A stretch of 61,955 nucleotides of DNA, filler included, from Dimargaris cristalligena (GCA_003614675.1; 13 parts of 13 records of this genome joined end to end with filler, not necessarily neighbours in it), one strand, 5' to 3'. Shown: positions 9,931 to 58,282, counted from the whole stretch's first letter. A program made the numbers and translations. The notes: generated by a model from the sequence alone, not told the origin.

Positions 9931-12297
9931 GTGAACCCTTTACTGGATTTCTGGACTGCAGTAACTACGCCGTCCTTGGCCGATGATAGCCCCACGGGAT
10001 CGATTGGCAACCCGACTCCGGATGCCCTGCACCGTCCGACTGATACGCTGGGCCGAGTCGAGCACTATTTCACCGCCCTCGTGGATTTCGTATGGGGCGA
10101 AACGGAATGGTTGACCACGACTTTGTCCGGACCCACCGAGGTCCCAGGGGATCCTCTGTATCAACTGTTGTCCAATTTATTTAGCCATATTCAGTCCAGC
10201 CTGGCCCAATGGGTACAGTTTGTAGCCAAGTCCATTGCGGATCGCATCCCGGATGACACAGTATGGGACCACCAGTATCCATTTATAGTAGACTTGTACC
10301 ATGCAGTTAGCAACCATTGTGTTACTCTGGACCAAATACTGCAAGAATTTACGGCCCGTCGGAACCATGCTAGCCAAATGAGCGCCAAGAACCTCCCGGG
10401 TCACTTTGCGAATATTGGCTACAACGACGACGACGATGATGATGACGGGGATGGTCGGGCCCTGATTGGCGGGTTTTCAGACTGGACTTTAACGGAAAAG
10501 ACTACGGTTCCTCAGTCACCACCCGAAGCAAAACCGAACAATTCATCTGACGCGGTCGACAGTGATATACTCATCCCGCTGTTGGAGCCCTTCCGTATCC
10601 TCCAAGAACAGTTCCCATCGATCGAAAACCAATGGCTGTGTAACCAAATTGACCGTGGATTCAATGGCCTGCTCGAACCTTTGGCTGCTATTCACCCACT
10701 GGCCCCGAGTCTACATTCGACCGATGTACTGGCCAAACCCGATTACCTGCTGGTGCGAACGGTCCTGGAAGATGCTTGCCAACGCATTACAGGTCTCCCC
10801 GAGGCCTTTAAGACTAGTTTGAATCGCCTAGTGCGGCTAGTCCGCGGCCGAATGTGGGCCACTTATCTTCCCATCATCCAAGAGGCCTATGTAGCTCTCC
10901 GTAGTACCAAATTACGCTCCCTGATAGCGGAAGTGAACCGGTGTTCGGCCCTACCGGATGTAACCACTTTACTCGCGTTTGCCCCGTGGAATCCCCGTCG
11001 AGATGATCGATCAAAGGCCGGTCCGCATGCCCCCCGGTACCACCACCACCCGTCACCCAGCCACCAGCAAATTGAAATTGGGTTTAATGTGCTTCGCCTG
11101 TGGCAGACCTTTGTAGTGGGGCTGCCCCAATTGGAGGATTATATTCGGCAGGCCTTTTTACAGGAAGCGCCGGATGTCCGGGGGCTGCTGGATCCCGTGG
11201 AATCGACTCCGAGAAATGATGATGATGATGCTACTCCTCATTCAACGGTCTCTCTTCCTGACCGTGCTCTCGAGGGTATTGGCTCGGATATAGAGCGGGG
11301 CGGGCTGGTTCAGTTCATTCGTAACACTGATGCGACACCCGCGTTTACCGCACCGGAATCCTTGCTAAGACGGAATGCCTCGTCTGTGGCGCATCTGGGC
11401 TGGACTAGCTTCACCCCGCTGTGGGTGGCGATGATGGTCCCCTTGTTCGCACCGTTAGCCCAATTTACGGCCCTGGATGATTGGCACCAAGACCGGTCAG
11501 CCGCCGCATCGGTATCTACCATGAATGTCCTTATTCCCAGCTTTAGCCTATCTCCGTCCTCTCCCTCGACCCAAGTCGGCGAGTATTTACTGACCCTGCC
11601 CCAACTGTGCGATACTTACTTAAATGACGCGGGTCATTGTGAATTACTGGCCACCTTGGTCGACCCGTGGCTGATGGCCCTAGGACAAGCCACCTTGGAA
11701 TCACGGCCGACTGCCGCGGAAATTAAATCAGTGGCCGAGCATGGGCCACTCGAACCTTTTTTTTCCGATTTTCCCTTCATTGTCGATGCCACAGCCCCGG
11801 CTTCCACTACGGCTCTACCGAAAGAGGACCTACTCACTCAGCGGATTTCGGCCTTAACCCAAGGGGCCTTGGCCATTTATACGCACCAAGTGATGTTGCG
11901 GCTGCGCTCTCCGCTAACAGCCAGTGGCCGGTCACAAATGGTGACCGACTTTAATTACCTGTCCAACATTGTACAGGCCATGGGTATTGAACCGATCCCC
12001 GTATTCCAACACCTCAGTGAGATTGTCGGATGCCCGAATCCCGAGGAGTCATGCGAGTCAGTATCCCCGCCGCTTTCCGGTCCTTCTCTGCCGAACCGAT
12101 TCTTGACGTGGTTGGATAAAGCCAAGTCAACCTCAACTGCAACAGCGGACCGGCCTGCCGATCTAGGGCTGGGCTATTTGCAGTTTGTCCTTGGTTTAAC
12201 TACTAAGGATATCAGTGACCGTATCATTGAACTAATTAGCCCGTCGTCGTCAGAACCATCCCCAACCAATTCAAATAAGAGTTCCGCCAACGGCTGA
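9931..12297 (+). CDS. COG7: Conserved oligomeric Golgi complex subunit 7 (5' part missing or inverted)
   Basis: PSFSLSPSSPSTQVGEYLLTLPQ and LTASGRSQMVTDFNYLSNIVQAMG are characteristic COG7 C-terminal motifs; no ATG at the ORF start. Confidence 0.85.
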   Translation: MNPLLDFWTAVTTPSLADDSPTGSIGNPTPDALHRPTDTLGRVEHYFTALVDFVWGETEWLTTTLSGPTEVPGDPLYQLLSNLFSHIQSSLAQWVQFVAKSIADRIPDDTVWDHQYPFIVDLYHAVSNHCVTLDQILQEFTARRNHASQMSAKNLPGHFANIGYNDDDDDDDGDGRALIGGFSDWTLTEKTTVPQSPPEAKPNNSSDAVDSDILIPLLEPFRILQEQFPSIENQWLCNQIDRGFNGLLEPLAAIHPLAPSLHSTDVLAKPDYLLVRTVLEDACQRITGLPEAFKTSLNRLVRLVRGRMWATYLPIIQEAYVALRSTKLRSLIAEVNRCSALPDVTTLLAFAPWNPRRDDRSKAGPHAPRYHHHPSPSHQQIEIGFNVLRLWQTFVVGLPQLEDYIRQAFLQEAPDVRGLLDPVESTPRNDDDDATPHSTVSLPDRALEGIGSDIERGGLVQFIRNTDATPAFTAPESLLRRNASSVAHLGWTSFTPLWVAMMVPLFAPLAQFTALDDWHQDRSAAASVSTMNVLIPSFSLSPSSPSTQVGEYLLTLPQLCDTYLNDAGHCELLATLVDPWLMALGQATLESRPTAAEIKSVAEHGPLEPFFSDFPFIVDATAPASTTALPKEDLLTQRISALTQGALAIYTHQVMLRLRSPLTASGRSQMVTDFNYLSNIVQAMGIEPIPVFQHLSEIVGCPNPEESCESVSPPLSGPSLPNRFLTWLDKAKSTSTATADRPADLGLGYLQFVLGLTTKDISDRIIELISPSSSEPSPTNSNKSSANG

Positions 12298-19243: not shown

Positions 19244-20970
19244 TGTAGAAGGCTCTGCTGGGAACTATAAGAGTTGTTAGATTAGCCTAGGAGTAATTAG
19301 TGTGAGCCTAGAGTCTGGAAAGAGAATAGTTATATAATATAAGATGATCCCATATTACTAGGGGTGACTATGGGAAGGTTAAATATAGTGCTAAAAGGCC
19401 TAATATAGTTGGTCTATCAATATGTCTGGATTAGGTTAGATTAGAAAGACTAATATTACCCTCTCTTACTATAGCCTCATCCTTAAGGCCTTTGATAAAT
19501 AGAATGATCTAGTTGCCAGATACTCATTCCTGCTGGAGGCATTTCTCATGAACTGAGGGGGTGATAGTATATATATTACTACCATAGATGCCTTCAATTA
19601 AAACAGGGCCCTTGAAGGGGGCTTGTAGGGACAGGGGCCTATGGGGGACCTGGACTAAGACTTGGTCTCTCATATGGTACTATATGGGATCTGTGGGTTT
19701 AGGGCCTAGCTTATAGCAAACTCACTGGTAAGCCTCACTGAGCCAGTTGCAGAGCTTATTGATATAGGCAGATCTGGTAAAGGCTCAGAGGGTGTTAATG
19801 TCAGCATTTAGGGCCACATCCATAGGCATACAGGGGTCTTAACTATACATCAGGTAAAATAGCTTGTTAACAATAAGTCAGATATAAGCCATGCAATAAG
19901 CAAATAGGTAAAGGGCTAAATGCTGGTCCCATTGTGGGTTGTCTCCAGAGGAGTATTTTATGATCATATGTTTGAGTATGCCATTGAGTTATTTAACTGC
20001 TCTATTTCTCTGGGGGTAGTAAGGGGTAGCCATCTCATGGTCTATCCCTGAGAGGCATAGGGTCTGCCTGTGGATACTCACTATAAATTATTTACCCTAG
20101 TTGGAGATCAGGATCTGGGGGCAGCTGTGGATACTGATTATATCTTTATTAAGGAATTGGATAATGGTTTGGGCTGTAATATTTAGGATAGTATGGGCAA
20201 AGGGCCAGTGGGTAAAATAGCCAATGGCAACTATAATAAACTTATTACCATTCTGTGGGTATTAAGCAGTCCAATTATGTTGATACCCAGGTGATCTAAT
20301 GGTCTGGTAAGGGGGGTAACTAACCATTCAGGGGGTTGGGGGGCCTATTAGTAGTACTGGTAGGTCTTACAACCTCATACATATTTATTTATATCCTTGT
20401 CCATTAAGGGCTAGTATACAGTCTATTGAAGATGGTGTAAAATGGTTTTGGTACCTAGATAGCTGGTACCAGGTCTGCTATGGGCAGTGACAATAGTTAC
20501 TACTCAGTGTACCTTAGGTAGGACAAGGTAGTTCTATCTGCCAGGACCTTGTTGTAATAGCAGCTGGTCTACTAGCACAAAGTTCTGGTTCTTACTATGG
20601 GATTTCTGGAATATATGGACTTCCATACAGTTACATAGTTCATTTACATCCAGGTCAGCTAGCTGATCCTAGAGCATCTGGCCTAGGGGGATGACAGTAG
20701 CCAGGACTATAGATAGGATATCAGTATAACTAAAGCCAGGAGTACTGTGTTCTGTCTTATCCAGGGTAGTAGTCTCCATCAATAGGGGAGCTTCAATTTA
20801 CTAGAAAACCAGCTATACTATGCAGTCCCTGGGGTAGAAGGAAAGTGTTTCAGCAGAGAGGCTGTATATTAGTACCTGGATTGTACCTTAGAAATTGGAA
20901 TCTATGACTCTGCTGCAGATGGCAATTTAACATAGCCCAAGGGAGCTGTGTTCCTTTATAAGGGCTACTA
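19244..20970 (-). mobile_element. Heavily mutated retroelement remnant: dUTPase (20719-20968), integrase (~19490-20520), probable PPT and 3' LTR fragment
   Basis: Manual minus-strand translation gives eroded dUTPase motifs 2-5, then AH..P...YLG and CKTYQ (HHCC remnant), HLGINIIG and LISN*G (DDE remnants) and PFKGP (GPY/F-like); AAGAGAGGG purine tract near 19459. Confidence 0.8.
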
Positions 20971-21411
20971 TGTTACCAACAATTTGAGGGACTCTGCTGG
21001 CATGCCTTTGGGAGAGTTGGCAGGAGGGGGAACCTCTGGTTTCTTTCCACTAGATAGCTTATCATATTTTGTCATGTAATGCAGAATGTTGGGCTTTGTT
21101 GGGTTTATTGAAGAATAAGTTCCTATGTGTTCTTTATTCTATCCTATTTTTACCAAATTACATTAGTTTATTCTGCTATCATGAGATCATTCATGTTAGC
21201 CAGTTATATTTCACTCTACAGAAATTACAACTCAATAAAACTAACCACCTAGAGGTACCTACCGTCCTCTAGCTGCTTTCTTCCCTTACTTCCAGTTTTA
21301 TTATTTTATAAGCCTTAGTATTCCAACAGATAATTCCTGTAAGCCATCCCACCACAGGTCAAGTTCCATATTAAAACAGCCATTCACAATGGCTCTATTT
21401 CCCTGGTGACA
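20971..21411 (+). repeat. 5' LTR of the plus-strand Ty3/Gypsy element
   Basis: TGTTACCA...TGGTGACA inverted termini; internal AATAAA; followed by a TGG-initiated PBS-like sequence (TGGCATC) at 21413. Confidence 0.7.
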
Positions 21412-21519
21412 GTGGCATCAATCAGCTACTATGCACTGCAATATTTGGATATTGCATCACTAATGACACCACAGAGGAGTATGTCTACTCCCTCTCCCTT
21501 CAAGAAGACTTGGTGCAGT

Positions 21520-22081
21520 TGTCGCCCGGGTTAACCACTCTTAGTCCGTCAAGAGTCTTGGGGGTAGGCTTCTAACGGTAGGCGGGGCATTGGACACGGC
21601 CAAGTGGGCTACTAGCATTAGGTACGGCAGCAATACTAACTAGATAAGGGAAGCACAAGATGTAGGTGAGGTCCGTGCACTAAATGCACACTTACTAGTC
21701 AGTATGAGGGGTGAGCGTATATAGAGTTTATGGGGAGTAAACCATTGGGGGTAAGAATAAGCTGGGGTGCTAACCGGACCCAAAGGGGGCCCAGTTATAT
21801 ATACGCGGGGGACAACTCCAAAGGGGAGGTCCTGAAGGGGGAACTACTTAATGCTAACAATAAGGTGGACCAGCTGGTCCTCGGCTGGGCGGGCTTCCAT
21901 GGGAATTGGAAGGCACTAAGATCACCTGTGAGTGATTAGTGTGAACTCCGGGAGGCCCGGCCAGTAGGGGGATATCAATGATGCTTGGCCTTATTAGGGC
22001 CGGGGGTATAATATGGCATTATACGGCCTGGTATGACAGCAGTCATATTGTTGGGATTAGGACAGATTAGGAGGGGCAACA
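21520..22081 (-). mobile_element. Solo LTR, family A (562 bp), with 5-bp TSD
   Basis: TGTCGCC...GGCAACA termini; flanks GCAGT and GTAGT; TATA-like box on the minus strand; homologous copies elsewhere in the window. Confidence 0.85.
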
Positions 22082-23918
22082 GTAGTAACCACAAGTCTAG
22101 TTCATACTCCACCCAGGAGTGCTGAGGTCTGGCTAGATGTCCAAACAACTCTCAGGCGAGATCACTGAGTTCACCCAACAAGCCAGTAACCCCCAGTCCA
22201 GTGGTCACATGTTTCAAGTGTCAGATGCAACACCACTATGCACCGAGTTGTCCCAAGAAGAACACCCCCAAGACACCACACACCCCAGCTACCAACATTC
22301 AAGGTATGCAAGTGGTTAATGAAGTCGGCTCTATTGAGGAGAACTAGATCATTGAGATGCCTATTATTGTCTGAGATATTTAAACTTTTGGTTTCTTGGA
22401 TACTGGTACCTCAAAGTCTATTATTCTTGAGGCCTTCTGCCATGAACATTATATCCCGGTTACACCTGCAACTGGTGTTATCCAGGGTTTCACCATGGCC
22501 ATGACTCAACCCCAAATTGGTATTACGGGCCCCATCAAGGTTAAATGTAGCTCACATACTGCTAGTGTTTCATTTGAAGCTCTCCAGGACTTTAAAGGAT
22601 CTTCCATTATTATTGGGAGAGATAGCTTTCAATACTTAGGTATCAACATCACCGGTCTTCCCCACACTTATCCAGCAACACATCCTTAGATTATGGATGA
22701 GGTAACCCCACTTATTTCCCCCAATAAACTCCAGACCCGGCCATTTGGTGATAAGCACATCAACTATATGAGAGCCAAGGAGTCTATCCTAGCTAACCTA
22801 CAAGAACTCCTTGACAAGAATGAGGCTATCAGTCCTCATGAGCCCTATCCAATTCCCGAGGCTGAGATTAGTCTTCCTACACCACCAGGATAGGCAATAT
22901 ATAGATGTCAGTATCTGATTCCACACAAGCTCCAGCCCAAGGTGAACAAGCTGATTAACCAGTGGCTCACTGACAGTATCATTAGGATTGCACCTATTGA
23001 CTGTGCATTCAATACTCCTATGTTCATCATCCCCAAAAAGGATGCCTAAGGCAATCTCACTGACATCCAACCATACCATGACTACCAGCTACTGAACCAG
23101 ATGCTCCCTGATGATTCCTTTCCCCTGCCCCTCATTGCAGATATTTTCAACTCTTTATCTAGGGCAGCCTACTTCTCCACTCTTGATCTCAAGTCAGCCT
23201 ACCACTGGTTCCTGATTGTCCCAGCCAACCAGCACAAGACTGCTTTCACCTGGAATGGTATCCAGTATGACTTCCACTGAGCCCTGTTTGGCCTCAAGAG
23301 CCTCCTGTCCAAGTTCCAGAAAGTGATCCAATGGCTTTTGCATGATTTACCCTTTGCTATTCCATTTATGGATGACATTATGGTGTTTTCACTGACCCCT
23401 GAAGACCACTAAGACCACCTATTGCAAGTACTCGAGAAACTCAATGAGGCATGGCTCATTCTCAATAGGCCCAAGTGTCACTTTATCAAGACTGAGATCA
23501 AGCTCCTAGGCTTTTGAATCAATGTGCAAGGCATGCATGTTAACCCTGGCAAGATCAGTATTATCAGGGACTGGCCCACTCCAACAACCACCAAACAGCT
23601 CCAGCATTATTTGGGTTTCTTCAACTACTTCAGGCAACACATACCCATGGTTTCCAAGCTCACAGCTCCACTTGATGCCCTGCAAACCAGTGACAACCTC
23701 AAGGCAGTTTGGACCCCGGAATATAGTACCATTTTTGAGCAGTTCAAGGCCATCTTGTATTTGGCCCCTTCACTGACCTTTCCTGACTTTTCAAAGCCCT
23801 TCTGCATTGCCACAGATGCATCTAATAAAGGCATTGGTGCTGTCTTGTACTAAACAGCTGATGGTGACCCCAACTCCACAGACATCAAGTTCAATTCCTT
23901 TCCAGCAAGAAGTCTCAC
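22082..23918 (+). pseudogene. Ty3/Gypsy pol pseudogene (protease, RT, RNase H), truncated by contig end
   Basis: LDTGTS protease motif; FPLPLI, FSTLDLKSAY, KTAF and FMDD RT motifs; FCIATDASNKGIGAVL RNase H motif; many transition-type stops. Confidence 0.9.
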
Positions 23919-24315
23919 NNNNNNNNNNNNNNNNNNNNNNNNNNNNNNNNNNNNNNNNNNNNTTAATTAATTAANNNNNNNNNNNNNNNNNNNNNNNNNN
24001 NNNNNNNNNNNNNNNNNNAGGCATAGAGAAGCATGCATTTTCTGACTATTGTAAACAAACATTGCAAATGAATAAAGCTACTACTAGTATATATATATTG
24101 AGCTTGAAGCAGCATGCTTCTATTATGTATGTGGCACGGCCTTCATTAAGAAGTGTACGCAGCTTGCTTGCTTGCATGGCGGCATGACGATGGTTAATGT
24201 GTGATCGCAATCGCCGTCACTAATCGCCCTTCCTCGCTCCCTCTCCCTCTCTATCTCTCGCTCTGTGTTTATTGTTACCTCACTAATCTAGCTTGCTGCT
24301 TCCTACGCCACTACC

Positions 24316-27300
24316 ATGTCGCCGTCATCTTCCGACGATTATAGGCAGCAGCAACCACCTCATCCGCCGGCTGTTGGCGGCAGTGGTCATGGTGCCAGTC
24401 AGGCGCTGTCGCCTCCGTCCGTCAAGTCGCCCGGTGTGGGCGGCAGCTTTCGCGGCAACCCGCGCCACTTGTCCGTGAACACGACAGCCTCGGCCGGCTC
24501 CACGTCCGCGGCGCTAAAGTCGCCGTCCCGCGAATTCACGCTGCTGTCCGATGCCGGCACGGAATTCGACTCGCTCGACCAGATGGGGCCGGCCATTCAG
24601 ACCATTTGCCAGACTGGCCGCGAGCAGGCGTTCATCAACGAGGTGGCCGGGTTCGTCGAGCGCAAGGAGGGAGAGATCGAACGGCTATGCAACACCCATT
24701 ATCAGGTAGCATGCCGTGTGGAAGCGGGCTGGCAGCATCGCAGTAACCACATGCATCGCCATGGATGATCTAGGATTTCATTAAGGCGGTGGAGGAGCTG
24801 CTGCTGGTGCGCCAAGGCACGGTGGCGCTGAAGGAGGACGTGCTGCGGCTGAATGGCGAGCTGCAAGTGTCGGGCGAGGACCTGGTGGCCAAGGTAGGAG
24901 ACGAGCTATGAGGATGCTACTCGTGTGCGTGCGCGTGCGTGTGTGTGTATGGGTTGGCGCACGGATGATTGACCGACTGCTCATTGCATGACCGCGATGG
25001 CCGGTGTATTTAGCGCGCGAAGCTCTACGCGGCCCAGCGCATCCGGGAGAATCTACAGCTGGGCATTGACCAGTTGCAGCGGTGTCTGCATGTGCTCAAG
25101 CTCGCCAACAAGGTGCGCATCCAGCTTGAGCATCGCAACTACTACACGGGCCTACGGGTAAGCGGGCGGCGACAGACGGCGATGTGCGCGAGAATGACGC
25201 ATGTTGTCCGCGGCGATGATCACCATCGTAGACGCTCGAAGAGTTGGAGGATGTCCATCTGCGAAAGGTGGCCAAATACGAGTTTGCCAAGCATATGGGT
25301 GGGTGGGATGCCGCGGTATCTGGCGCATGGCATTCAATGGCCATGAATGTAATTAGAGAAATGGATCCCCTTGATGAAGGAGAACATCAAGAGCTCGGTT
25401 ATGTCTGATTTGAAGGAGTGGCTGTTCAAGTAAGCGGGGCGCAGCTGCAATGGACGCATATATGGGAATGGCCATGCTTACACGGGCTGCACGGCGTGGT
25501 CGATAGCCTACGCGAGCAGTCGCGCATGGTCGGACAGCTGGCCATGCGGGAGGCGAACGAGCTGCAGGCGAAATCGCCCAAGGGCGAGAATGTCGACACG
25601 GCATTGGAGCTGGTGCTGGACGAGGAGAATGGACGTAGGTTGGCAGGCAGCGTGCCGATCGCCATGGAACGACTAACGAAGAGACGGGCAGTGGATCTGC
25701 TGGAGGACAACCGGGTCACGATTGATTTCAAGCCGCTCTATCAGTGCATCCATATCTACGAGAAGCTGGGCCGTAAGAATGAGTTCAAGAAGCACTACGA
25801 GGAGGATCGACAGGTGAGAGGCGGGAGGGAGAGGGAATGGCATGGCTGTCCATGGATGACGAGCCATGCACGGATGCATGTAGGCCCAGGTGGATCTGAT
25901 TCTCAAGGCCAAGATCGACACGACGCCCGAGGGCAAGAAGGCGCTGGGCGACATGCTACAAGAGATAGTGGGATTCTTTATTGTGGAGCACCGTGTCGCC
26001 TACACCACGCGCGAGTTCCGATCGAAAGCACGGGTAGGCAGCGAGAGGTGATGTGGGGGGAGCGCGGCACTCGGGCTTACCGGGTGGATGTGCGCATGGC
26101 GCGCGGCAGGTGGAGGTGCTGTGGACCATGGTGGCCGAGCGCATCACACGTGCGATATCCGACACCATCCGGCAGTGCTCCGATATCGACGCGCTAAGCG
26201 AGGTGAAGCAGTCGACGATGCTGTTCGTGCCGGCGTTGGAGGTAAGTGCGCGCGTTTGGCCCATGGACATGTGAGGCTGACGGGCAGGGATGTGGCTGTA
26301 TGCGGTAGCGGTACATGTTTGACACGCGGAAGCCGCGCGAGTTGACGCAGATCCTTATCGAGCGATGCGCCGCCCTGACACTTCTGACCTGTGGCACGCA
26401 GTTTAAAGAAGTAGGTGCATATCGTTTACGATTGTGGTTGCTAACATGTATGTATGTATGTGCATATAGCGCGCGGCCGACAAGGGATTCCAGCCTATGA
26501 CGATCCATGACGAGAAGGAGTACAAGGTGCTGCGCGGGCTGTACAAGTTCCCCGAGGAGCCCGATGCGCGCAAGCAAGGGCAAGTGTGCAGCCTATCGAG
26601 CTGTCATCGTCATCGCGCGCCATGTCATGCTTATGCGATGCTCGATGGATCGTAGATTCCCGCGTGCACTTCCGTTCGGCAGTGTCATTCCGCTTATTTG
26701 CGCGGACATCAAGCGCGGTGTCGATCAGTTCTATGGCTTTGCCGTGAACGAAGCGGGCCAGCCTGTGGTGCCGCAGGTCGATACGATCGTCCAGAATGTA
26801 GGCCATCGCATTGCTAGGACAATCACGAGATGCACAAGCTTACGCGATGACGCGCGCGTGTAGGCGGTGGACGCACTGCTGGGCAGAACGGTGCCCGACG
26901 TGCTGCGAGGCGAGCTCAAGTCCACCTCGATGCTGCAGGTGGTCCAGCTAAACGCGAACATCGAGCATTTCGATCATGTTTGCGGCGAGTTCGAGAAGTT
27001 CCTCACCGATCGCCGGCAAGTGCCATTGAACAGTGATGATCGCGGCAGTAGCAGCAGCATGTGTGCGCGCTAACCCATGCATGCAACAAATAGTGTCGTC
27101 CGATCGTCCAACGAGGACAAGATCAAGCTGAAGGCGCGCGATGCCTTCGACGATGTTAGGAAGCAGGCGGAGAAGCGCATCTTTGAGCTTATCAACGGCA
27201 AGCTGGACGCCTTCCTCGCCGCATCCGACTATGACTGGCAAGTATCGAGCTGTGCTGCTGGTATTCCGCGAGCCTGCATGCTCATACTGTGCATTAGGAT

Positions 27301-27972
27301 GCCCAAGAAGCCACGTGCACAGCCGGCCAACTACCTGACCGGTAATGCTGTCCGTCCACCATGTCCGTCTGGCCCGTGCTCATAGCCTGTCTGCTTGTAG
27401 AGCTCGTCAGCTATCTAAAGGAGATGTTCACCACGGCGCTCGTCCATCTGCCGGTCAATATCAAGTCGCTCGTGACATTCGAGGCGATGGACCATTTGGC
27501 GACATCGATGAATGTAGGCGCACACACATACACATGCATTCATCCTACTAATCACGGATACCTACTTAGGAGCTGCTTCTGGGATCGAAGGTCAAGAAGT
27601 TCAATAGCAACTTTGTCGCCAACATGGACGTCGATGTGTCGTTCCTCGAACGGTTCCTCGAGGAGCTGGGCGATCCCATGATGCTCGATATATTCGTCGA
27701 GTTGCGACAGGTAGCTCGTCGACCATGCATGCGAGGCAGCCAGGGCTAACGAGGCTGTTGCCAGGTGATCACCCTACTGCTATCGAACAACCAGGAGGAG
27801 TATCTCGACATGCAGATACGCAATCGCAAGTACTCCCGTCTCAAGCCGGCCATGGTGATGGCACTATTTGAAAAGTAAGGATCCACCATCGGCCAGTACA
27901 TCCATCATGAGCACGACTGACCATCATCATCATCATCATCCTTCCTGTTCCATGCGTAGATTCCGGCCATAA
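24316..27972 (+). CDS. SEC15: Exocyst subunit Sec15/EXOC6; about 19 exons
   Basis: Spliced model gives EIERLCNTHYQ|DFIKAVEELL, MSDLKEWL, IDFKPLYQCIHIYEKLG, EIVGFFIVE, FPRALPF, AEKRIFELINGKLDAFL, FVELRQ; the splice sites I traced keep the frame. Confidence 0.92.
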
Positions 27973-28120
27973 TAATACTAGCAACACAATGCAAATAAAC
28001 AACAGTTTCTTCTTCCATTGACCACTAATGCTGCATAATTACTGTATCTTTTATTTCCAGTCATATCATATCTACTAGTCCGCATACATATGAAGGGCAC
28101 GTCTCTCTCCCCCCCCCTCT

Positions 28121-28643
28121 CTAGGCCTGAATGCCCGTCTCCAATGCTGCTATGAGCGGGGCCATCTTCTCGCCTCGGATAAAGTAGAGACGGCGTGCCG
28201 GGGCGATTCCCGTCTCCTGGAAGGTCCGTAGGGCATCGGCAACTGGTGGCGGCTTACGGAACCCGAAATCGCACTTGATATCCGCGAACTAGACCATCGA
28301 GCGCATCGTGTCCAGACAGTGTTGGTTATGTACGCCAGTGCACAGTCGAGTAAGCTGCCCATGCGCCTACCTGATCGATAATCTCGTCCTCCAAATGATA
28401 GTGGAAGATGGCCGGCTCGCTTGCCTAATGCGCGTGCACATAGAGTAACATGTCATAGCATGGTCAGCGTGGTTATTGTCGCAGCTGGCATAGGATGGCT
28501 GTGGCACATGCAACACACACCTTATTCTTCTTCTTCTTTCCTTGCACAACGGGCGCATCGGGCATGTCGTCATCGGCCACCGGTGCCACTTCGCGATACG
28601 TCTTCGACAGCAGCACATACCATGCAAACTGATAGGGTTCATT
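28121..28643 (-). CDS. BCP1: BCP1/BCCIP family protein, 3' exons (28521-28643, 28371-28424, 28121-28288); 5' truncated
   Basis: Phase-0 GT-AG spliced translation NEPYQFAWYVLLSKTYRE...KKKKNK|ASEPAIFHYHLEDEIIDQ|FA...GIAPARRLYFI matches the BCP1 C-terminal motifs (LSKTY, FHxEDE). Confidence 0.75.
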
Positions 28644-28892
28644 CTAGCGAGGGGTGCCCATCAGCGTTAGTCAGTCGCATGCCGCGTNNNNNNNNNNNNN
28701 NNNNNNNNNNNNNNNNNNNNNNNNNNNNNNNTTAATTAATTAANNNNNNNNNNNNNNNNNNNNNNNNNNNNNNNNNNNNNNNNNNNNTAAATCAAGGGTC
28801 TAGGTTATTCAGGGGCGACGGAAAGTAGTAGCTGGTCTTGATGCCATTGTTGGAATAACCACCGGTGGTCCTGGGTCACTTAATGTTGTTGG

Positions 28893-30678: not shown

Positions 30679-32534
30679 ATGGAGTATCGGCCCGAACAGA
30701 CCACGCAGCTCATGTAAGTACTAGCCATCTCGAATTAATATCAGTCGACCCGAATACCCCCGCAGTACTACTCCGCCATCAATGTATTGTGTTTGACATA
30801 CTCCGAGTATTTGCCGTCGGGTGTAATAACAAGGGGGCTTAATTTCTCCTTTCGAACATATCGTCTACTCGATAGGCCCCGGCTTAGTCAGCCTCCTTAC
30901 TGAATGTATCTCAAACCACATCCCTATATACATACGCAATCTGCCACTATCATAACATACCCCCTGCCCTTCCATACCCTGCTGTATATAGCCTGTGCTG
31001 CTCTTGCGGTACGGCGATTCCGCCGAACCCGGCGAATATGTGTGAGACCTGTATTCGCAGCGAAGTGGACATTACCGAGGGCATCCCCAAACAAGCCACG
31101 ATTCATTTCTGCCGTAACTGCGAACGCTACCTCCAGCCGCCCACCCAATGGATTCCCTGTGTGCTCGAATCGCGGGAACTGTTGACCTTGTGTATCAAAA
31201 AACTCAAGGGCCTCAACAAGGTTCGCCTGATTGACGCGGGGTTCATCTGGACCGAGCCCCATTCTCGGCGTATCAAGGTTAAACTCACGATCCAGAAGGA
31301 GGTCTTCGCCAACACGATCCTGCAGCAGATGTTCCAGGTCGAGTATGTCGTGGCCTACCAGCAGTGCGAAGACTGTACCCGGGTCATGGCCCAGAATACC
31401 TGGAAGGCCATGGTGCAATTGCGTCAGAAGGTGCCCCACAAGCGTACGTTCCTGTACCTCGAACAGCTCATTCTGAAGCACAGCGCCCATAAGGATACCA
31501 CCAACGTCAAGGAACGCCGGGACGGTCTGGATTTCTATTACGCCAGCCGGAGTCACGCCGTGAAGATGCTGGACTTTTTGCAGGCCGTGGTGCCCGTGCG
31601 CTCCAAGTCGTCGGAACAGCTCATTTCCACGGATATCCACAACAACACGTCCAACTACAAGTTCACTTACTCGGTGGAAATTGCCCCCATTTGTAAAGAC
31701 GACCTGGTGTGCCTGGCCCCGAAAATGGCGCAGTCCCTGAGTAATATCAACCCCCTGTGTCTGTGCTACCGGGTGGGTAACAGTGTGAACCTCATTGACC
31801 CCCACACCCTAACCATGGCCGAAGTCCAGAGTGGTCTGTACTGGCGGAACCCCTTCTCGGCCATTCTGGCCACCAAGGACCTGGTGGAATATTACGTGTT
31901 CGATGTGGAGCCCCTCGGCGTCTCCCGCGGCCGCTTCACCCTCGCTGACGTGACCCTGGCCCGCACGTCCGATTTTGGCAAGAACGACACGTCCTTCTTT
32001 GCCCGGTCCCACCTGGGCGGGATCCTCAAACCCGGGGACACCTGTCTGGGCTACGATTTGGCCACCACCAACGTCAACGATACCAACTTTGACCGTCTGG
32101 ACGCCGGCCGTATCCCCGATGTGGTCATTGTCAAGAAATCCTACCCCAACCGCCGTAAGAAGAGTCGTACCCGTCACTGGCGACTCAAGACCCTCACCAA
32201 GGAAGAGGAGGACGTGCTACCCCGTAAGCAAGATCAGGAGAAGATTGAACAGGACTACGAACTGTTCCTGCGTGATTTGGAAGAAGACCCCGAATTCCGT
32301 GCCACTATCAACCTGTACAAGGCCGACGAGAACGCTACTAACACTGCTGCCCCAGCGGCTGCCCCCGGTCGGTCGGTTACCTTTATGGAACAGGATGATA
32401 CGGCTATGGCTCAGGATAGCGACGATGTTGGTGAAGAGGAAGAGGAGGACTTCCCCGAAATTGCCCTGGAAGAACTCATGAACGAACTGAACATCGAAGA
32501 GGACGAGGAGGTTCCAAGTGTGATGCCCGAATAA
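30679..32534 (+). CDS. NMD3: 60S ribosomal export adaptor Nmd3; exons 30679-30713 and 30992-32534
   Basis: Spliced start MEYRPEQTTQLILCCSCGTAIPPNPANMC; FIWTEPHSRRIKVKLTIQKE; QLRQKVPHKRTFLYLEQLILKH; acidic tail; GTAAGT/TAG phase-2 intron. Confidence 0.97.
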
Positions 32535-37543: not shown

Positions 37544-38668
37544 GCAGACTATAGAAACTAGACCATGGGACGCATGGCATTCAATGCGTGAAGTAGCTAT
37601 CGGAATGCCGCTGTTCAATGCTAGGTGGAGCCTGCTAACCCGGATTTTGGGGCGGCCGGATAGAAAAACAAGGGCAGTGTGATATAGGGAATGGGTCGGG
37701 AATGGCGTAGAGTCAGACAGAGATTACTAGATCAGCCCAACGTCAAAAAGGAATCCAGGAAAGCAAAGAGCAACTCTCCAATCGCAGCCGGTTCTCAAAT
37801 ATACTATTGACACTAAAGTTTAGAGTCAACAACCGGGCCAACCAGCTGCCACTATGCCCAATTCCAGTACCTGATTACGGATCGCCCATTTAGCCAATAT
37901 CCACTTGCCGAGGCCCCTTCAATAGACTAGGTTATCCCCATTCAGTTTCGGGAAACCAATATGCCCCCCAGCTAGAAATTCGATGATCGGGGAATTTTAG
38001 GTATTTATATAGTTCCCGGAAATAAATCGAGTATTTCCGGCGGAGCAACTATGGGAACAATATTTACAAATAAAACATTACCATCGACATATGATGGATA
38101 GGTTGTGCATCAACGACTTTAAATGGTACAGAACCGGGCGAGCATCTCTTGAGCCAAGCCAGGATTACCGCTAAGCACATAAATTTGGGCCAGATTATAA
38201 GCCGCCTCATNNNNNNNNNNNNNNNNNNNNNNNNNNNNNNNNNNNNNNNNNNNNTTAATTAATTAANNNNNNNNNNNNNNNNNNNNNNNNNNNNNNNNNN
38301 NNNNNNNNNNGTCCTCTAAAGGTCACGTGACCTAAATATGATGGCCCCCCTATATGGATTTTACCCTATATAGTCTGGTTGAACTTTACCCATATTATGC
38401 TAATAGAGGGGAAAGAAAAAATTTTCCGTAAAAATATTACTTTCCCCAAAGTAGAAAGGAAAAATTTTCATGCGAAAATTGTTTTCTCTATCTTTCTCCT
38501 TCTTTTATTCCTTCCTACCATCCGACCCTATTAGTTTATTCTATTTTTACTATCAAAATTTGTCTCTGCCATGTTCTTTACACATGTGCATGACGACCTT
38601 TCGGTTATTATAGCCCGTGGACTTGTCCATTGGGTGAAATAAGTATCACCACTAAATAACAAAACGTC

Positions 38669-39048
38669 TGTAACAATATAAGTGTTTAGAGATGACCCCA
38701 GTTTATCCAACGTTAATGTTGGTGTTAAGACGAAGGTTTATTCGGGGTATAATAAAATAATAGATAGAGATAAGGAAATAAATGGAAGAACTAAAGCGGT
38801 GTTGATGTAAAATGTTGAGGGCTATGATGATTGTTGTTTCTTCAACGTGCACCGAAGACGTCCTTTTTATAAGAAGTCAATGTAGTTACTGAAAGCAGGA
38901 CACAATTATGGTGTGTTGTGGTCGGGCTGGGGTAACCCGGAGTAATGCAAAGCAGTGATGACTCGAACTGCCGAATGATAATTAAGGAGACGCGAAGGGA
39001 CACATTAGTAATATTATGTGCGTTAGACAAGGGTCGTAAAACGTCACA
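38669..39048 (-). repeat. 3' LTR (380 bp) of the dUTPase-bearing Ty3/Gypsy element
   Basis: Minus strand: purine tract GAGGAGA, then TGTGAC...TGTTACA termini; internal TATAAAAAG. Confidence 0.75.
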
Positions 39049-42000
39049 TCTCCTCAGAACTAATATGTAGGTGGGAGTTGGCCTGTGAACCGTTGTTAAG
39101 AATGTGGGTCAGGCTCATGGGATCGGGAGGCATAGGCGGAGAGCATTTGATGAGTTCTCGAGAGACGTGGTGGCGAAAGATGTGGCCAAGCCTATCGACT
39201 AAGGTGTAGGTATTATGTGGGGAGCGGGCCCCAATTGTAAAGGGACCCAGCCATGGAAGTTGGGACTTGGTGCGATTACGGTTCTCATAAAAGACCATGG
39301 TGCCAAGTGGGAGCTCAGCTTTGGCGAAGGGTGCTGAAATGGCCTTACACTTTAAGCGATGTTCTTGGGCTTTGGACCGGTTAGCAATGACTTCCCGGCG
39401 TAATTCCTCAAAGCCTTTGGTAGCAGATGGTCCCATAGTGACGTTGGTGGGGTAGAGGACTTTGGCGGGTAGTCGGGGGTTGAAGGTGTAGAGTATTCGG
39501 GAGGGCTCCTTGAGGGATGCAGTGTGTGTGCTCATGTGGTAGGTGAATAGAGCCTGTGGGAGGAATTTGTCCCAGTCTTGTTGGTGTTGTTCAGTAAGTA
39601 GGTGCAATTGCTGGACCAAGGTATCATTGTACCTCTCGAGTTGGCCATTGGTTTGAGCGTGGTAAGGTGCCGAGAAATTGTGGTTAATGTCCAGGCATTC
39701 ACATATACCATGTATAAGGCTGTTATCAAATTCCCGCCCATTATTTGTCAGAATTCGGGTGGGGCAGCCAAATCGACAGACGATGTTGGTAATGAAGAAG
39801 TCGACAACGGAGGGGGCTGATTTGTCAGGTAGTGCTTGAGCTTCAGGCCAAGAAGAGAAGAGGTCCATTGCAGTGTCAATGTATCGATTACCCATGGCTG
39901 TTGGTTGTTCGAATGGGCCTATGACATCAAGCACTACAGTGGAGAATGGGTGTGACTCTAGCCAGGTCTTTGGGGCAAGGTGGTCGTGTCGGGGGTTGCC
40001 CATCTGGCAGTAGGGGCATTGGGCTATGAAGTTTCGGACTGATTGAGTAATCCCACGCCAGAAGTAGCGCTGTTGGATTAGTTTGGCGGTTTTTGCAATG
40101 CCTAAGTGGCCCATGAGGGCGGAGCCATGGTGTAGCATAATAATGTTGTTGATATCTTTTGCTCGAATAACTCGGCGGAGTTTGTTTGATCCTCGGCAAG
40201 TAACGTACAGAGTGTCATCCTCTCCAACTTTGAATAGAGGTGCGGCGGCTGTGATTTGAGATGAGTCTTCGGGGGTCATGTTTGATGGTAAGTATCCTGT
40301 CTTGATAAAACTCACAAGGACGTCGATGAGGTCGTCTGGGACTGCTGGTGCATGGTCCCGGAACTTGGGGATGGGGAGGTTGTTTTCTTTGATGGTGAGG
40401 ATCTGGTTGGATGTGGGGGCTGGGGAATTCCATGGAATTCGGGATAAGGCATCGGCAGCCGAGTTGTCTGTCCCTTTTCTGTGGACAATGTCAAATGAAT
40501 ATGGCTGGAGGTACATTATCCATCGGGCAATCCTGCCAGTGGGCTCACGGGTATCCATAAGCCAGCGAAGGGCAGCGTGGTCGGATTCAACTGTGAAGTG
40601 AGTTCCATGGATATAGACGTAGAAGTGTTTGATGGCCCATACTACTGCTAAACACTCCATTTCAGTGGCTGTGTAGTTGCCTTCAGCTGAGGATAGTGTT
40701 CAGCTGGCACATTGGATAAGGACTTCGCCATGGTTTTGATGCTGCTGTAGTATGGCACCCAGTCCAGATGTACTGGCATCAGTTTGGATTGTGAAAGGTA
40801 GTGAGAAGTCAGGGTGGCCAAGGATGGGTGGGGACAATAGGATAACTTTGATGGTTTCAAAGGCTTGTTGTTGGGTACTCCCCCACTTGAAGGTAGCATT
40901 CTTACAGAGGAGAAGGTACAGTGGTTTTGCAATTGTAGCCAGAGTAGCAACAAAACGGCGGTAGTAATTGACGAGGCCAAGGAATTGGCGTACTCCAGTG
41001 ATTGATGTTGGAATGGGGTGGTCACGTATTGCTGCAGTGCCTCTTTTACTAGGGGAAATGCCCTCAGCAGAGATGAGGTAGCTAAGATATTCGGTGGATA
41101 GGGATGCTATAGAGCACTTACTAGTTTTTAATTTGATGTGGTGAGTGTCTAGGCGTCTGAGGATGTTCTGCAGATGGTTTAAGTGGTTTTCAAAGGAATT
41201 GCTAAAGATGAGAATGTCATCAATGTAGACAATCACATAGTTCAGGTTTTGGGTGTTAAGGGCAGATACCATAGCCCGTTGGAATGTTGCTGGGGCATTA
41301 GTTAGCCCGAATGGCATGACATTAAACTCAAAGTGTCCAAAGGGGGATGTAAATGCCGTTTTTTCTTTGTCCTCCTGGCGGAGTGGTATTTGCCAGAACC
41401 CAGACATGGCATCAAGGGATGAGAAGTACCGGGCTTGGGAGAACTGGTCCAGTGCTTCCTCAACCTTAGGGAGTGGGTAGACGTCCCGGATGGTGATACT
41501 GTTAAGTTGACGGTAGTCTATGCACATGCGGTAGGTTTGGTCTTTCTTTTTTGCTAGGACGATGGGTGCACTCCAGGGTGATTTGCTGTATTGGATGACA
41601 CCAGCATTGAGGGCTTTGTGGAGTTCTTCGTGAATGGTTTGCTTTTCACCTGGGGAGAATCGGCGGAAGTAGGTTTTGATGGGTTGCTTTGTGTTGTTTT
41701 TGATGTCGATTGTATGTTCACCAACTAGTGCAGTTGTCAAGTCACTATGGTCGTCAATGAAGAGGTGTCTAAAAGGGGATATAATTTCTAAGACAGCTTT
41801 TTTTTGTTGGGTAGTTAGTTCGGGTGAGATTATGGCTGCTAATGTGTTACTAACCTCACTGATATTATTAATATAGTCAGTTAATCCAAATCCATTGAAG
41901 CCATGATCACTGGCCCCAAGATTACTAAGGGAGGGGACCTCATACACATAGTCGAGGTCACTGATTTTCTCAAGGATTAATTGGGCAATTTGTTGGCCAC

Positions 42001-42967
42001 ACTGGATAGTGTATGGGGCCTAGCTATAATTAATCAGGAGGACCCCGATTTCACCACGGTATCCCCAGTCAATGACTCCAGCACCAACATGGATATTATA
42101 TTTAGTGGCTAGGCCAGAGCGCGGGGCAATTCGGCCATAAAACCCTGTGGGGATGGCAATGTGGATACCAATGTTGATAGTAGCTGTTTTGCAGGGGGCA
42201 ATTACCGTAGTCCTGTGAGCAAATAGGTCAAACCCTGCATCAGTGGGGTGTGACTTTACTGGGAGGTAGGCCTGGCTGTCTACTCTGAAGTCACAGAGAG
42301 TATTGTCTGTAAAGTTCTTAATGGTTAAAACTCGTGAGTCAAACTCAGTGACACTTATGTCTTCCTTTGGGGTGGGTACCAGGATTTGGAAGGGCACAGG
42401 GTCATAATTGTTATTACCAGTGGGGATGTCCAGTGTGTTGGTTTTAAAATCCAGGCATGGTCTTAGGAGGTGGAAGAATGGGACTCCAAGGAGTGGCTGC
42501 ATGGAGGAGCCAGGGAGGATGGTGAAGTGTACTAGGGCCTCGGTGTTACTGATAGTGATGGGCACATTGTTGACATGACCTACAGCCTGGATGGTTTTGT
42601 CATTGGCTAGCTCAATAAGACGGGATACTGTCCTATCAATGGAGAGGTTGAGTTGCAGTGCACATCTTTCTGACATAGCATTGGTGCTTGCACCAGAGTC
42701 CAAGATAACTTGCATATCAGTGTCCACAAATGTGACCAGTGTTAAGACTGGGGTATATCTGATAGCTTGTGGAATACTGTGGGTACCCCCTGGATTCTCA
42801 GAGTGTTTAGGGTGGTTGGTGTTTTCACTGACTTTGTTGATGGTGGCAGTGAGGGAGGTGGGTGGTTGGGCTCTGGGGGTATATGGGTTGTTCTCCCAAA
42901 GTGTGGTGTTGTCTGTGGTTTCAAAGGGGGTTGGTTGGCGTTTTTGGGCCCGTATGCACCATCGCCA
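39044..42967 (-). mobile_element. Ty3/Gypsy retrotransposon pol: protease, dUTPase, RT, RNase H, integrase in one frame with two nonsense mutations
   Basis: LDSGA protease; AGFDL, RSG, GVIDWGYRG, QIAQL and HGFNGFGLTD dUTPase motifs; YIDD RT; TDAS RNase H; HHCC integrase and GPF motif; only TAG at 42020 and TGA at 40700 interrupt the frame. Confidence 0.95.
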
Positions 42968-50850: not shown

Positions 50851-51435
50851 TATACCGGCCCTCCTAATCCAACTTGATCCAGATCTAATGATTGCCCATC
50901 CTATTCTTACCTTATAGCACCATATTGACCCTCCCATAGTCACCCCTGGTACTATGGGGTCATCCTTTATTATGTAACCCCACTCATTCGACCCCAATAC
51001 TTTGCACTCCAAACACTTAGCTCACTGATCCAAGACTCTTCCAGTTCCCATGAGCATCTTCCCAATGTGATGCTGTCTGGTTGGATTCTTTACTTATCCA
51101 CACCTAAGTCATAGTAGTATTTCCCTTGGGACCTCCCTCTGGAGCTGTCCCTGTGTATATATAACCAGGCCCTACTGGGACTGGTTCAATTCCTTAGCTT
51201 ATCCCTACCCCTTAGTTTACCTTAATAAACTCTATATACACTTACCCCCCTTGTACCAACTAGTAAGTGTGCCTGCTGTATGTCCCTGACATTACCTGCA
51301 TCTGTCCTTTATTGGTTAGTACTACACCCCCATCCTAGCACTAGTAGCCCACTTGGCTGAGTCTAAGCCCCACCTACTGCTAGAAGCCTATCCTTGGGAC
51401 TCTTGACAGACTAAGAGTGGTTAACCAGAGTAATA
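50851..51435 (+). repeat. Family A LTR, heavily mutated
   Basis: Collinear with the reverse complement of 21520-22081 (CCTCCTAATCC...CTAAGAGTGGTTAAC); termini eroded to TA...TA. Confidence 0.8.
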
Positions 51436-53909: not shown

Positions 53910-53930
53910 AGGTAAAAAATGTGGTAAGTT

Positions 53931-54458
53931 CACCACAGCCTTATAGCACCATATTAACCTTCCCATAGTTACCCCCAGTACTATAGTATCATTATTTATC
54001 ATATAACCCTTCCCCTTCCAGACTCTGCCTCTTCATACTAATCACTCAAGTATGAATCCAAAGACTCTTCTGTTTACCATTAGAGTCTTCCAGATCCTCA
54101 TGGCCATCTGGTTGGCCTATTTACCTATACCTTAGTCTTAGTAGTATTCTTCCCCCAGGACCTCCCTCTAGAGTTATCCCCACATATATAACTGGGCCCC
54201 ATTAGGACCAGTTAAATTCCTTAGCTTATTCTTCCCCCTTGCTTATCTAATAAACTTTATATATACTCATTCCCCTTATTGACTAGTAAGTATGTCCGCT
54301 ATATGTCCCTTGCATATTCCTGCTGCTAAGCCTTTATTAGTTAGTACTATGCCCTATACCTGACACCAGTAGCCCACTTAGCTAAGTCTAAGCCCCACCT
54401 TGTTAGAAGCCTATCCCTGGAACTCTTGATAGACTAAGAGTAGTACATCTGTGTAATA
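53931..54458 (+). repeat. Family A LTR, 5'-truncated and heavily mutated
   Basis: TTATAGCACCATATT...TATATAACTGGGCCCC...AATAAAC...GACTAAGAGT collinear with the other copies. Confidence 0.75.
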
Positions 54459-57456: not shown

Positions 57457-58023
57457 TGTCACCTGAATTAACCACTCTTAGTCCATCAAGAGTCTCAGGG
57501 ATAGGCTTCTAATGGTAGGTGGGGCATTGGGCACGGCCAAGCGGGCTACTAGCATTAGGTAGGGCTGATACTAACTGAATAAAGCAAGTGTCCAATGCAT
57601 ATGAGGGGGACATGCACTGATGCACACTTACTAGTTAGTATAAGGGGGTGAGCATATATAGAGTTTATTGAGGGTAAACTAAGGGGGGTAAGAATAAGCT
57701 AGGGTATTAACTGGTCCCCATGGGGGGCCCAGTTATATATACATGGGGGACTACTCCAAGGGAGGTCTCAAGGGGAAACTACATAACTAGGATAATGATA
57801 GGGAGGGCCGGGTGGTCCTCATATGAGCAGAGGCTTCCATGGGAACTGGAAGATACTAAGATCACCTAGGAGTGAGTGGTGCGAACTCCGAGGGGGTCCA
57901 TCTGGTAAGATATTATATATAATGTCCGGCCCCATTAGGACCAGGGGTACAATATGGTGCTATACAGCCTGCTAAGACAGCAATCATTAGCGGACAGATT
58001 ATGTTGGATTAGGAGGGGCAACA
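57457..58023 (-). repeat. Family A LTR (567 bp)
   Basis: TGTCACC...GGCAACA termini; collinear with 21520-22081; no TSD; G-rich tract precedes it on the minus strand. Confidence 0.85.
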
Positions 58024-58282
58024 CCCCAGACTCCTATAACTAAATGATCCTCGAGTTGTGAGTAAGAACTATAAATACTGAATATTGAATATTGAATATT
58101 GGAAAAATGGCCTAGCCATCGAATGGCTTATAACTGGGTGGGAAAAGATGAAGACTGATATTTAGTGATGTTCTTCATCTTTTCTAAACTAAAAATAGTT
58201 TGGCCGGGATATGCTATTAGAGTTTAAGCAGGCCCGGCCACAACACATGAAAGGGAATTCTAAATAATTTGCCACTAATTTC

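Follow-up and report, generated by a model that had tools for sequence, protein, structure and literature searches.

Results

Organization of the contig at 19244-23918

We have analysed a 61,955-base stretch of DNA (the window) from Dimargaris cristalligena, which is described as a mycoparasite first sequenced from single cells (PMC6784888), and in particular the mutated retrotransposon sequences at positions 19244-23918. The window is made up of 13 contigs placed by decreasing length, from 4,745 down to 4,641 bases, and joined by N44-TTAATTAATTAA-N44 linkers with stops in all six frames; this order says nothing about linkage. The region 19244-23918 occupies exactly one of these contigs, which is a nest of Ty3/gypsy long terminal repeat (LTR) retrotransposon pieces (Table 1). 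Nearly all of the changes in these pieces are C:G>T:A transitions, concentrated at CpG and, in second place, at CpA. The stretch is also present in public data from five sequencing runs of two studies, and contigs of four of these runs were compared with it; the depth of such contigs is not a copy number.

Table 1. Retrotransposon pieces of the contig 19244-23918 and related elements elsewhere in the window
Feature	Position	Strand	Remarks
LTR-1, 3' part	19244..19455	+	Cut by contig start; 0 CG against 5.3 expected; high contig depth in runs
Decayed Ty3/gypsy integrase fragment with upstream pol remnant	19456..21011	-	Oldest piece; 27 in-frame stops in 528 codons
Putative 5' LTR (LTR-2) and leader of plus-strand element	21012..21510	+	Boundaries inferred
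Left target-site duplication, GCAGT	21515..21519	+	Empty site in other copies reads ...GCAG-C-AACC
Solo LTR, family LTR-1	21520..22081	+	TG...CA ends; LTR-copy alignment and flanking 5-bp duplication; youngest piece
Right target-site duplication, GTAGT	22082..22086	+	One C>T at CpA relative to left copy
Internal region of plus-strand Ty3/gypsy element	22087..23918	+	Leader, gag CCHC knuckle, protease, reverse transcriptase (RT), RNase H start; cut by contig end
Comparison element, nearly intact Ty3/gypsy pol	38311..42967	-	Other contig; protease, dUTPase, RT, RNase H, integrase
LTR-1 copy C	50864..51435	-	Other contig; CpG observed/expected 0.04
LTR-1 copy D	53938..54458	-	Other contig; CpG observed/expected 0.05; private changes at 12/29 CpA sites
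LTR-1 copy B	57457..58030	+	Other contig; used in context test

By this arrangement the integrase piece came first, followed by the plus-strand element and then by the solo LTR. The integrase piece matches 1,628 proteins at E<=1e-10 in a phmmer search, over the integrase core at residues 265-415, and scores 20.3 bits with the Pfam rve model, which is under the cut-off. Contigs that match it exactly end at 21011 in four runs, and depth rises from there, going near position 21000 from a few hundred to 7,000-200,000 (a depth of contigs, not a copy number). The hypermutated integrase sequence is not an accident of assembly, since it recurs across runs of two studies: the match is free of differences in contigs of three runs, with 19357-21011 and 19640-21011 covered in separate runs, and 3 differences over 1,768 bases are seen in a run of the second study. 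A second copy of the integrase element, approximately 81-83% identical over 19421-20246, is present in contigs of 1,301-1,696 bases in all four runs.

The plus-strand element can be read through 22126-23916 as gag (CCHC), protease and RT in a single frame, with 10 stops in 597 codons and no frameshifts. A single 574-residue tblastn alignment to protein P0122 covers 22204-23916, and the Pfam models RVT_1 (63 bits) and RT_RNaseH_2 (45.3 bits) are both matched above the cut-off. The best matches to the gag-protease-RT reading are 44-51% identical, apart from one Dimargaris protein with 76% identity over 14% of the query, and no family consensus could be built at the protein level. The solo LTR is nested within the leader of this element, and the uninterrupted form is found in contigs of all four runs, where 21518 joins 22087 with one C between them and 568 bases are skipped. 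The truncated LTR at the start of the contig aligns in plus orientation with the 3' parts of the LTR copies at 21520-22081, 50864-51435 and 53938-54458. The TG...CA termini of the LTR and the 5-bp target-site duplication are those of Ty3/gypsy elements; the full domain order is seen only in the comparison element at 38311-42967. When the other 11 contigs were searched by tblastn, no additional pieces of decayed pol came to light. Two segments that adjoin LTR-1 copies C and D (51068-52317 and 54067-54816) have no CG at all and TpA observed/expected ratios of 1.2-1.6; no recognizable pol remnant was found in them by tblastn, and they are probably older element debris.

Loss of CG dinucleotides in the elements

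In the first 2,000 bases of the contig (19244-21243) there is not one CG dinucleotide, where 80.6 are expected from base composition (Poisson P about 1e-35), and the whole contig has 29 against 227.8 expected, an observed/expected ratio (O/E) of 0.13. An earlier note on this DNA, written from the sequence alone, had described 19244-20970 as essentially free of CG and rich in TA, and the counts bear this out, with 0 CG against 71.8 expected in that segment and a TpA O/E of 1.34 in 19467-21050 (1.26-1.50 across its 500-base intervals). The TA-richness holds for 19244-21000 and for the LTRs but not for 22126-23918, where TpA O/E is 0.72 and there is an excess of CA/TG (1.38). The loss of CG is graded by the order of nesting, the integrase piece having 0 CG against 68.8 expected (TpA O/E 1.34), the two parts of the plus-strand element 1 against 17.7 and 10 against 91, and the solo LTR 18 against 34.8.

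This depletion does not extend to host DNA. The gene set used for comparison consists of six contigs (c1, c3, c4, c6, c7 and c8), of which only c3, c4, c7 and c8 contain host genes recognized by Pfam; CpG O/E is 0.78-1.08 in the six and 0.78-0.93 in these four. The COG7 (9931-12297) and NMD3 (31008-32531) genes, which had been described as CG-rich neighbours, are not nearby, as each lies on another contig of the same assembly. The predicted NMD3 protein also identifies the source as the early-diverging fungus that had been supposed: its open reading frame (ORF) matches a partial Dimargaris cristalligena protein of NCBI with 100% identity, and the next best matches are in Tieghemiomyces parasiticus (75%) and Dispira simplex (72%), which places the organism among the zoopagomycetes (Zoopagomycota, Kickxellomycotina, Dimargaritales). 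Unique DNA is likewise spared, as non-ORF sequence of the six gene contigs has a CpG O/E of 0.74-0.95 and a TpA O/E of 0.98-1.21, with no overall depletion of CA/TG. A CpG O/E below 0.35 occurs in 36 of 221 500-base intervals, 15 of them in the contig 19244-23918, the others in contigs with LTR copies or the gypsy element and none in the six gene-set contigs. The paired values of CpG O/E and CA/TG O/E are 0.11 and 1.38 for the gag-protease-RT region, 0.50 and 1.22 for the nearly intact gypsy element, and 0.86-1.08 and 0.96-1.14 for host ORFs.

Spectrum of changes and lesions

The family is highly repeated, with 1,378-1,811 contig pieces per run aligning to the stretch at a likeness of at least 80%. 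When the window copy is compared with other genomic copies in the four runs, the transition/transversion ratio is 5.1-5.6, and places at which the window has A/T and the others G/C outnumber the reverse by a factor of 1.74-1.90. The best 40 of 570 differing places include 25 in which the others have G/C and the window A/T, with 13, 3 and 8 at codon positions 1, 2 and 3, respectively, and in this set of 40 stop codons are caught in formation (CAG>TAG at 22345, CGA>TGA at 22372 and CAA>TAA at 22381). The same set of 40 has 10 in-frame places with C/G retained in the window against T/A in the others; 9 of these are at codon position 3, and an eleventh place of this kind, at 21643, is in the LTR. 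The former spread is like that of neutral decay of the window copy, and the latter like that of divergence among lineages under selection.

The integrase has lesions at conserved residues, as had been claimed: the catalytic residues Asp317 (GAC>AAC, after C) and Glu353 (GAA>AAA, after T), as well as His345 (CAC>TAC) and Pro397 (CCA>CTA), together with Arg codons turned to TAA or TAG. Changes of C>T or G>A alone explain 19 of the 41 conserved columns that differ, and A>G accounts for 2 of 70 A/T opportunities. On the sense strand C>T and G>A are about equally frequent (12 and 13, and 9 and 11), and clustering of changes by strand is not significant (p=0.21 and 0.60). Indels are indeed rare and the frame persists for more than 700 nt, in the 574-residue alignment of the plus strand and, on the minus strand, in an alignment to residues 267-518 of protein P0230 (about 750 nt).

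Sequence context of the changes

Stop codons are biased evidence of context, because any transition that makes TAA or TAG is by definition CpA/TpG>TpA. The context was examined on changes independent of stops in three tests (Table 2). The first used the 25 polarized changes relative to other copies in the public runs, from the best 40 of 570 places; in this test CpG is hit approximately six times harder than CpA. The second used private C>T and G>A changes in LTR copies A-D, with the polarity of each set by the sister copy and an outgroup copy; the T>C and A>G changes counted by parsimony on the LTR tree (93, compared with 46 C:G>T:A) were not used, because parallel loss of the same CpGs across copies inflates their number. 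The third compared the integrase with 150 homologues at columns from residue 265 onward that have one residue in at least 50% and are covered by at least 90 sequences, counting non-synonymous C>T and G>A changes only; three Arg>stop double changes were left out, as were columns before residue 265, where the alignment fails, probably through a frameshift. CpA is hit 4-13 times more than CpC/CpT in the three tests and CpG is hit hardest in all of them, while the remaining contexts stay close to background, in agreement with the original proposal of hypermutation at CpA as well as CpG.

Table 2. Mutated/available sites by dinucleotide in the three context tests, with rates in parentheses and the odds ratio (OR) for CpA against CpC+CpT
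Test	CpG	CpA	CpC	CpT	OR (p)
Other copies in public runs	9/38 (0.24)	12/326 (0.037)	2/255 (0.008)	2/266 (0.008)	4.9 (0.0035)
LTR copies A-D	10/22 (0.455)	18/104 (0.173)	10/222 (0.045)	8/169 (0.047)	4.3 (5e-5)
Integrase conserved columns	5/6 (0.83)	11/21 (0.52)	2/35 (0.06)	2/16 (0.12)	12.9 (8e-5)

Seven pairs of other short repeats (130-315 bases, 71-83% identical) served as a control. They differ by 149 transitions and 132 transversions, a ratio of 1.1, and show no context effect (YpG 13/132, YpA 30/277, YpC 24/156, YpT 33/240); the pattern in the elements is thus not a by-product of aligning diverged DNA, and some repeats are unaffected. A 5' T is not preferred at the CpG, the fraction of T before G being 0.71 after A, 0.75 after C, 0.96 after G and 0.80 after T.

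A nearly intact element as a living lineage

The comparison element has a pol reading of 1,307 codons with only two internal in-frame stops, TAG at 42020-42022 and TGA at 40700-40702. Its dUTPase domain, located between protease and RT, matches Pfam PF00692 with 70.9 bits. In this element CpG O/E depends on codon phase, being 0.97 at positions 1-2 (Arg CGN codons), 0.14 at positions 2-3 and 0.30 across codons (3-1), compared with 0.73-1.59 over all three phases in five host ORFs. Where a pyrimidine occupies a synonymous third position, it is T in a fraction of 0.78 when G follows, 0.34 when A follows and 0.19 when C or T follows, corresponding to an OR of 15.6 (p=4e-42) before G and 2.2 (p=2e-5) before A; the equivalent values in host ORFs are 1.5 and 1.3. 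The NCG>NCA class has an OR of 9.7. Retention of CpG in Arg codons together with its loss at synonymous phases points to slow loss in a living lineage, unlike inactivation in a single episode; at all sites where selection allows it, the coding lineage loses CpG and, slightly, CpA.

Indices of repeat-induced point mutation

Repeat-induced point mutation (RIP) should produce a high TpA/ApT index, a low (CpA+TpG)/(ApC+GpT) index and a composite index above 0. The three values are 1.21, 1.24 and -0.03 for the integrase piece and 0.71, 1.55 and -0.84 for the gag-protease-RT region, so that the index check suggested in the earlier note goes against RIP. Only the small LTR pieces have a positive composite index, which reflects family composition, because the youngest LTR is positive too. 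While C:G>T:A transitions dominate the divergence between copies, as in RIP, CpA is not the preferred target; CpG leads, CpA comes second, and CpT and CpC follow at about the same level, in contrast to the CpA > CpT > CpG > CpC of Neurospora-type RIP. Nor is there a burst of inactivation that leaves functional lineages untouched, since the comparison element itself decays and the loss of CG follows nesting. As for duplication as a trigger, the 130-315-bp repeat pairs are unmutated, perhaps because they are below a length threshold, and a 1.23-kb inverted duplicate has one difference, perhaps because it is an artefact or very recent.

Other features of the window

This inverted duplicate is part of the contig 52567-57214, at whose ends there are inverted repeats of 1.35 kb. 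Their inner 1.23 kb differs by one base and one gap and holds a 284-codon ORF with no Pfam match, while the outer approximately 120 bases are LTR-1 and have 13 differences, 10 at CpG and none at CpA. The contig is either a real inverted duplication in which only the LTR ends are mutating or an amplification or assembly artefact that was extended into different LTR copies.

A repeat of approximately 150 bases is present on three contigs, at 1482-1635, 48418-48549, 49161-49316, 58282-58426 and 58519-58679. Two of its copies are inverted 103 bases apart within 58282-58674, which has the look of a miniature inverted-repeat transposable element. Copies are 71-83% identical, with transitions about as frequent as transversions and no depletion of CpG.

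The contig 24019-28687 has deviant dinucleotide frequencies, with a GC content of 0.56, a CC/GG O/E of 0.78 (1.05-1.5 elsewhere), GpC of 1.30 and ApT of 1.45. Both of its strands carry long overlapping ORFs, two of which were compared with Pfam without a match, and the contig may come from another genome compartment or another organism.

Discussion

The LTR retrotransposons of this window are under a mutation pressure that is specific to cytosine and to context, restricted to elements, graded by age and active also on coding-competent copies. Dead copies have no CG left, and C-to-T changes have removed about half of the CA/TG sites tested in them, which is not the case in ordinary genes. We regard 5-methylcytosine (5mC) targeted to transposons, at CG far more than at CA, and followed by deamination, as the best reading of these sequences, with a probability of about 0.5; both methylation as the cause and the identity of the writing enzyme are inferred. 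On this reading, the LTR retrotransposons of D. cristalligena would carry 5mC that host genes lack, dense at CG and sparser at CA and written by enzymes of the DNA methyltransferase (DNMT) family. Deamination would convert CG to TG/CA quickly and CA/TG to TA about six times more slowly, with other changes at the background rate. The process would be slow and continuous, such that living lineages lose CG only at synonymous sites, while dead copies would decay until CG is gone and about half of the tested CA/TG has become TA, acquiring stops without indels. Of the two wordings offered in the earlier note, a RIP-like or a methylation-driven defence, it is the second that fits best, whereas RIP in the strict sense conflicts with the indices, with the preference for CpG over CpA and with the synonymous-only loss.

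The depletion of CpG with a matching excess of TpG/CpA, in the elements only, and the loss of synonymous CpGs from coding-competent copies are what decay through 5mC would leave. The CG-only specificity of DNMT1 and DNMT5 systems was not found, given the 4-13-fold excess at CpA in the three tests and the OR of 2.2 at synonymous sites. In ten fungal genomes CpG signatures are reported to accompany genes of the Masc2/DNMT1 type and CpA signatures those of the RID/Masc1 type (PMC4352252), and by this rule the presence of both here suggests that two types of enzyme should be encoded in Dimargaris, or a single one of relaxed specificity (Dim-2-like). Some indirect support for methylation may be drawn, by analogy, from the occurrence of CDCA7F in the Kickxellomycotina genera Coemansia and Linderina, as nearly all species with CDCA7 are described as having DNMT1 (10.1101/2023.01.30.526367).

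Several observations weigh against a methylation-based explanation. A CG-only maintenance methylase fails on the CpA component, so that non-CG methylation or a second enzyme has to be assumed. The evidence for CpA has its own weaknesses: the first context test rests on the best 40 of 570 differing places, and in the third, G>A at codon position 1 makes up 7 of the 11 CpA-type events, for which the base on the 5' side is a third position under no constraint and may have changed as well. A conserved-column test of the plus-strand element against 144 homologues showed no CpA effect (CpA 2/18, CpC 1/28, CpT 4/23; OR 1.15, p=1), albeit with low power, as the homologues are 30-50% identical and most of the 65 differing columns are lineage differences; we have counted this test neither way. 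LTR copy B has private changes at 10/16 CpG sites but at only 1/27 CpA sites, and CpA mutation may be uneven among copies, and the NTG>NTA class in the comparison element is without effect (OR 0.95). No contig within the window joins the elements to a Dimargaris housekeeping gene. Finally, early-diverging fungi are usually described as rich in N6-methyladenine and almost free of 5mC, which a recent review gives as near-undetectable in them (PMC13297926).

The alternative that deserves most attention, doubtful as we consider it, is a true RIP-like defence, that is, a genuine repeat-directed cytosine mutator in D. cristalligena in which a DNMT-family enzyme (RID- or DIM-2-like) deaminates cytosines, at CpG and then CpA, after being steered to repeated DNA by a step that senses homology and may be linked to the sexual cycle. 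Decay that is nearly all C:G>T:A with few indels, a frame that persists through 27 stops in 528 codons, and the preference for CpA over CpC and CpT would all be at home in such a system, as would a CpA load that varies by copy (12/29 in copy D, 1/27 in copy B) and the sparing of the approximately 150-bp repeats, which a length threshold for RIP would predict. A 'light' RIP filtered by selection could mimic the signal of a living lineage, and there are reports of mixed CpG and CpA signatures in Tuber and Aspergillus (PMC4352252) and of RIP-index matches in Zoophthora radicans, another species of Zoopagomycota (PMC11105155). Against this stand the substrate indices of 1.24 and 1.55 and the composite indices of -0.03 and -0.84, the approximately sixfold preference for CpG over CpA, the absence of strand-wise runs of changes and the grading of CpG loss by insertion order. 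RIP acting in one shot also does not predict a coding-competent element in which CpG loss is only synonymous and Arg CGN codons are intact. The 1.23-kb inverted duplicate, with one difference where its LTR ends have 13 in approximately 120 bases, argues in the same direction, although this is a weak point in that the contig is perhaps an assembly artefact, and a kingdom-wide k-mer screen is reported to have found RIP-like signatures only in Ascomycota (PMC12543289). Were this explanation nevertheless true, RIP-like genome defence would predate the origin of Dikarya, contradicting the Ascomycota-only view presented there.

The probability that is left beyond methylation decay and RIP is spread over genome-wide bias, artefact or foreign DNA, and other causes. 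A mutation bias acting genome-wide, in which C>T occurs at CpG and CpA everywhere and is visible only in dead elements because genes are under selection, seems improbable: non-ORF TpA is slightly above 1 (0.98-1.21) and host ORFs show weak third-position effects of the same sign (OR 1.5 and 1.3), but unique non-ORF DNA retains its CpG without overall depletion of CA/TG, the seven other repeat pairs have a transition/transversion ratio of 1.1 and no CpG or CpA excess, and host ORFs show a synonymous-site effect ten times weaker than that of the element. Still less credit can be given to an artefact of single-cell amplification or assembly, or to DNA of another organism such as the host fungus of the mycoparasite. 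The assembly is of short contigs, the 1.35-kb terminal inverted repeat of 52567-57214 is of the amplification-chimera type, the elements of the window are on contigs separate from Dimargaris genes, and 24019-28687 has its different dinucleotide signature. These points are countered by the presence of the stretch in five runs of two studies under one organism label, by contigs with 0 differences in separate runs and 3 differences in 1,768 bases in a run of the second study, by the 1,378-1,811 contig pieces of the family per run, and by a codon-phase pattern that is not expected of random errors; part of the RT reading also has 76% identity to an NCBI protein of D. cristalligena, although that protein comes from a deposit of the same species. 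An AID/APOBEC-like deaminase that edits the cDNA of retrotransposons as it is reverse-transcribed would accord with retroelement targets and with damage by cytosine deamination, but has next to no probability. Such editing would hit one strand, with G>A on the sense strand, and is excluded because both strands are hit equally (12/13 and 9/11); moreover, genome-resident LTR copies keep diverging at CpG, and the context base lies 3' of the C, not 5'.

Decay of methylated cytosines thus remains the preferred reading, and the contig constitutes evidence, at the level of sequence, for a mark that a zoopagomycete places on its LTR retrotransposons and that makes cytosines of CG, and less so of CA, mutate. 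This makes directly testable the question of whether cytosine-based genome defence, and its non-CG arm, existed before Dikarya. For Dimargaris or Kickxellomycotina we found no literature that treats DNMTs, 5mC or the hypermutation of transposons, in a search that mostly did not cover subscription papers (Bewick et al., 2019 may treat DNMTs in this group), and nine supplementary files of Ahrendt et al. (2018) contain no match for PF00145, methyltransferase, Gypsy or LTR.

The pattern has features of several known systems. With RIP in Neurospora crassa and other Pezizomycotina it shares the restriction of C:G>T:A changes to repeats, a component of CpA>TpA, numerous stops and a scarcity of indels, but in Dimargaris CpG is far ahead of CpA, CpA/TpG is not depleted, the indices fail and living element lineages decay gradually at synonymous sites. 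The methylated transposons and genes of vertebrates show depletion of CpG with an excess of TpG/CpA, strongest at synonymous sites of coding-competent copies and complete in dead ones; in Dimargaris the effect is limited to the elements and does not extend to the genome as a whole, and CpA is hypermutable too. The transposable elements (TEs) of Tuber melanosporum, as described by Amselem et al. (2015; PMC4352252), offer a similar picture of TE-restricted C>T that falls mainly on CpG and secondarily on CpA in a TE-rich genome, read as deamination of methylcytosine. Tuber is, however, a pezizomycete (Ascomycota) with RID and Dim-2-type genes on record, whereas the evidence here comes from a zoopagomycete and from one contig and a few LTR copies rather than from a genome-wide survey. 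The TpCpG hypermutation described in Pucciniomycotina (Horns et al., 2012; PMC3318451) is likewise a CpG-centred, RIP-like C>T mutation of repeats outside Pezizomycotina, but Dimargaris differs in having no 5' T preference (T before G at 0.71-0.96 whatever the 5' base) and in its CpA component. Within Zoopagomycota, a RIP-like composition has been reported for Zoophthora radicans and other Entomophthorales, where proteins with a DNA_methylase domain are present (Stajich et al., 2024; PMC11105155). That claim is presented with its authors' caveats and on windows of the composite index only, while in Dimargaris, a member of another subphylum (Kickxellomycotina), the composite index is negative and the evidence is based on alignments and codons. 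What we describe is a known type of TE decay, in a phylum where it is unexpected.

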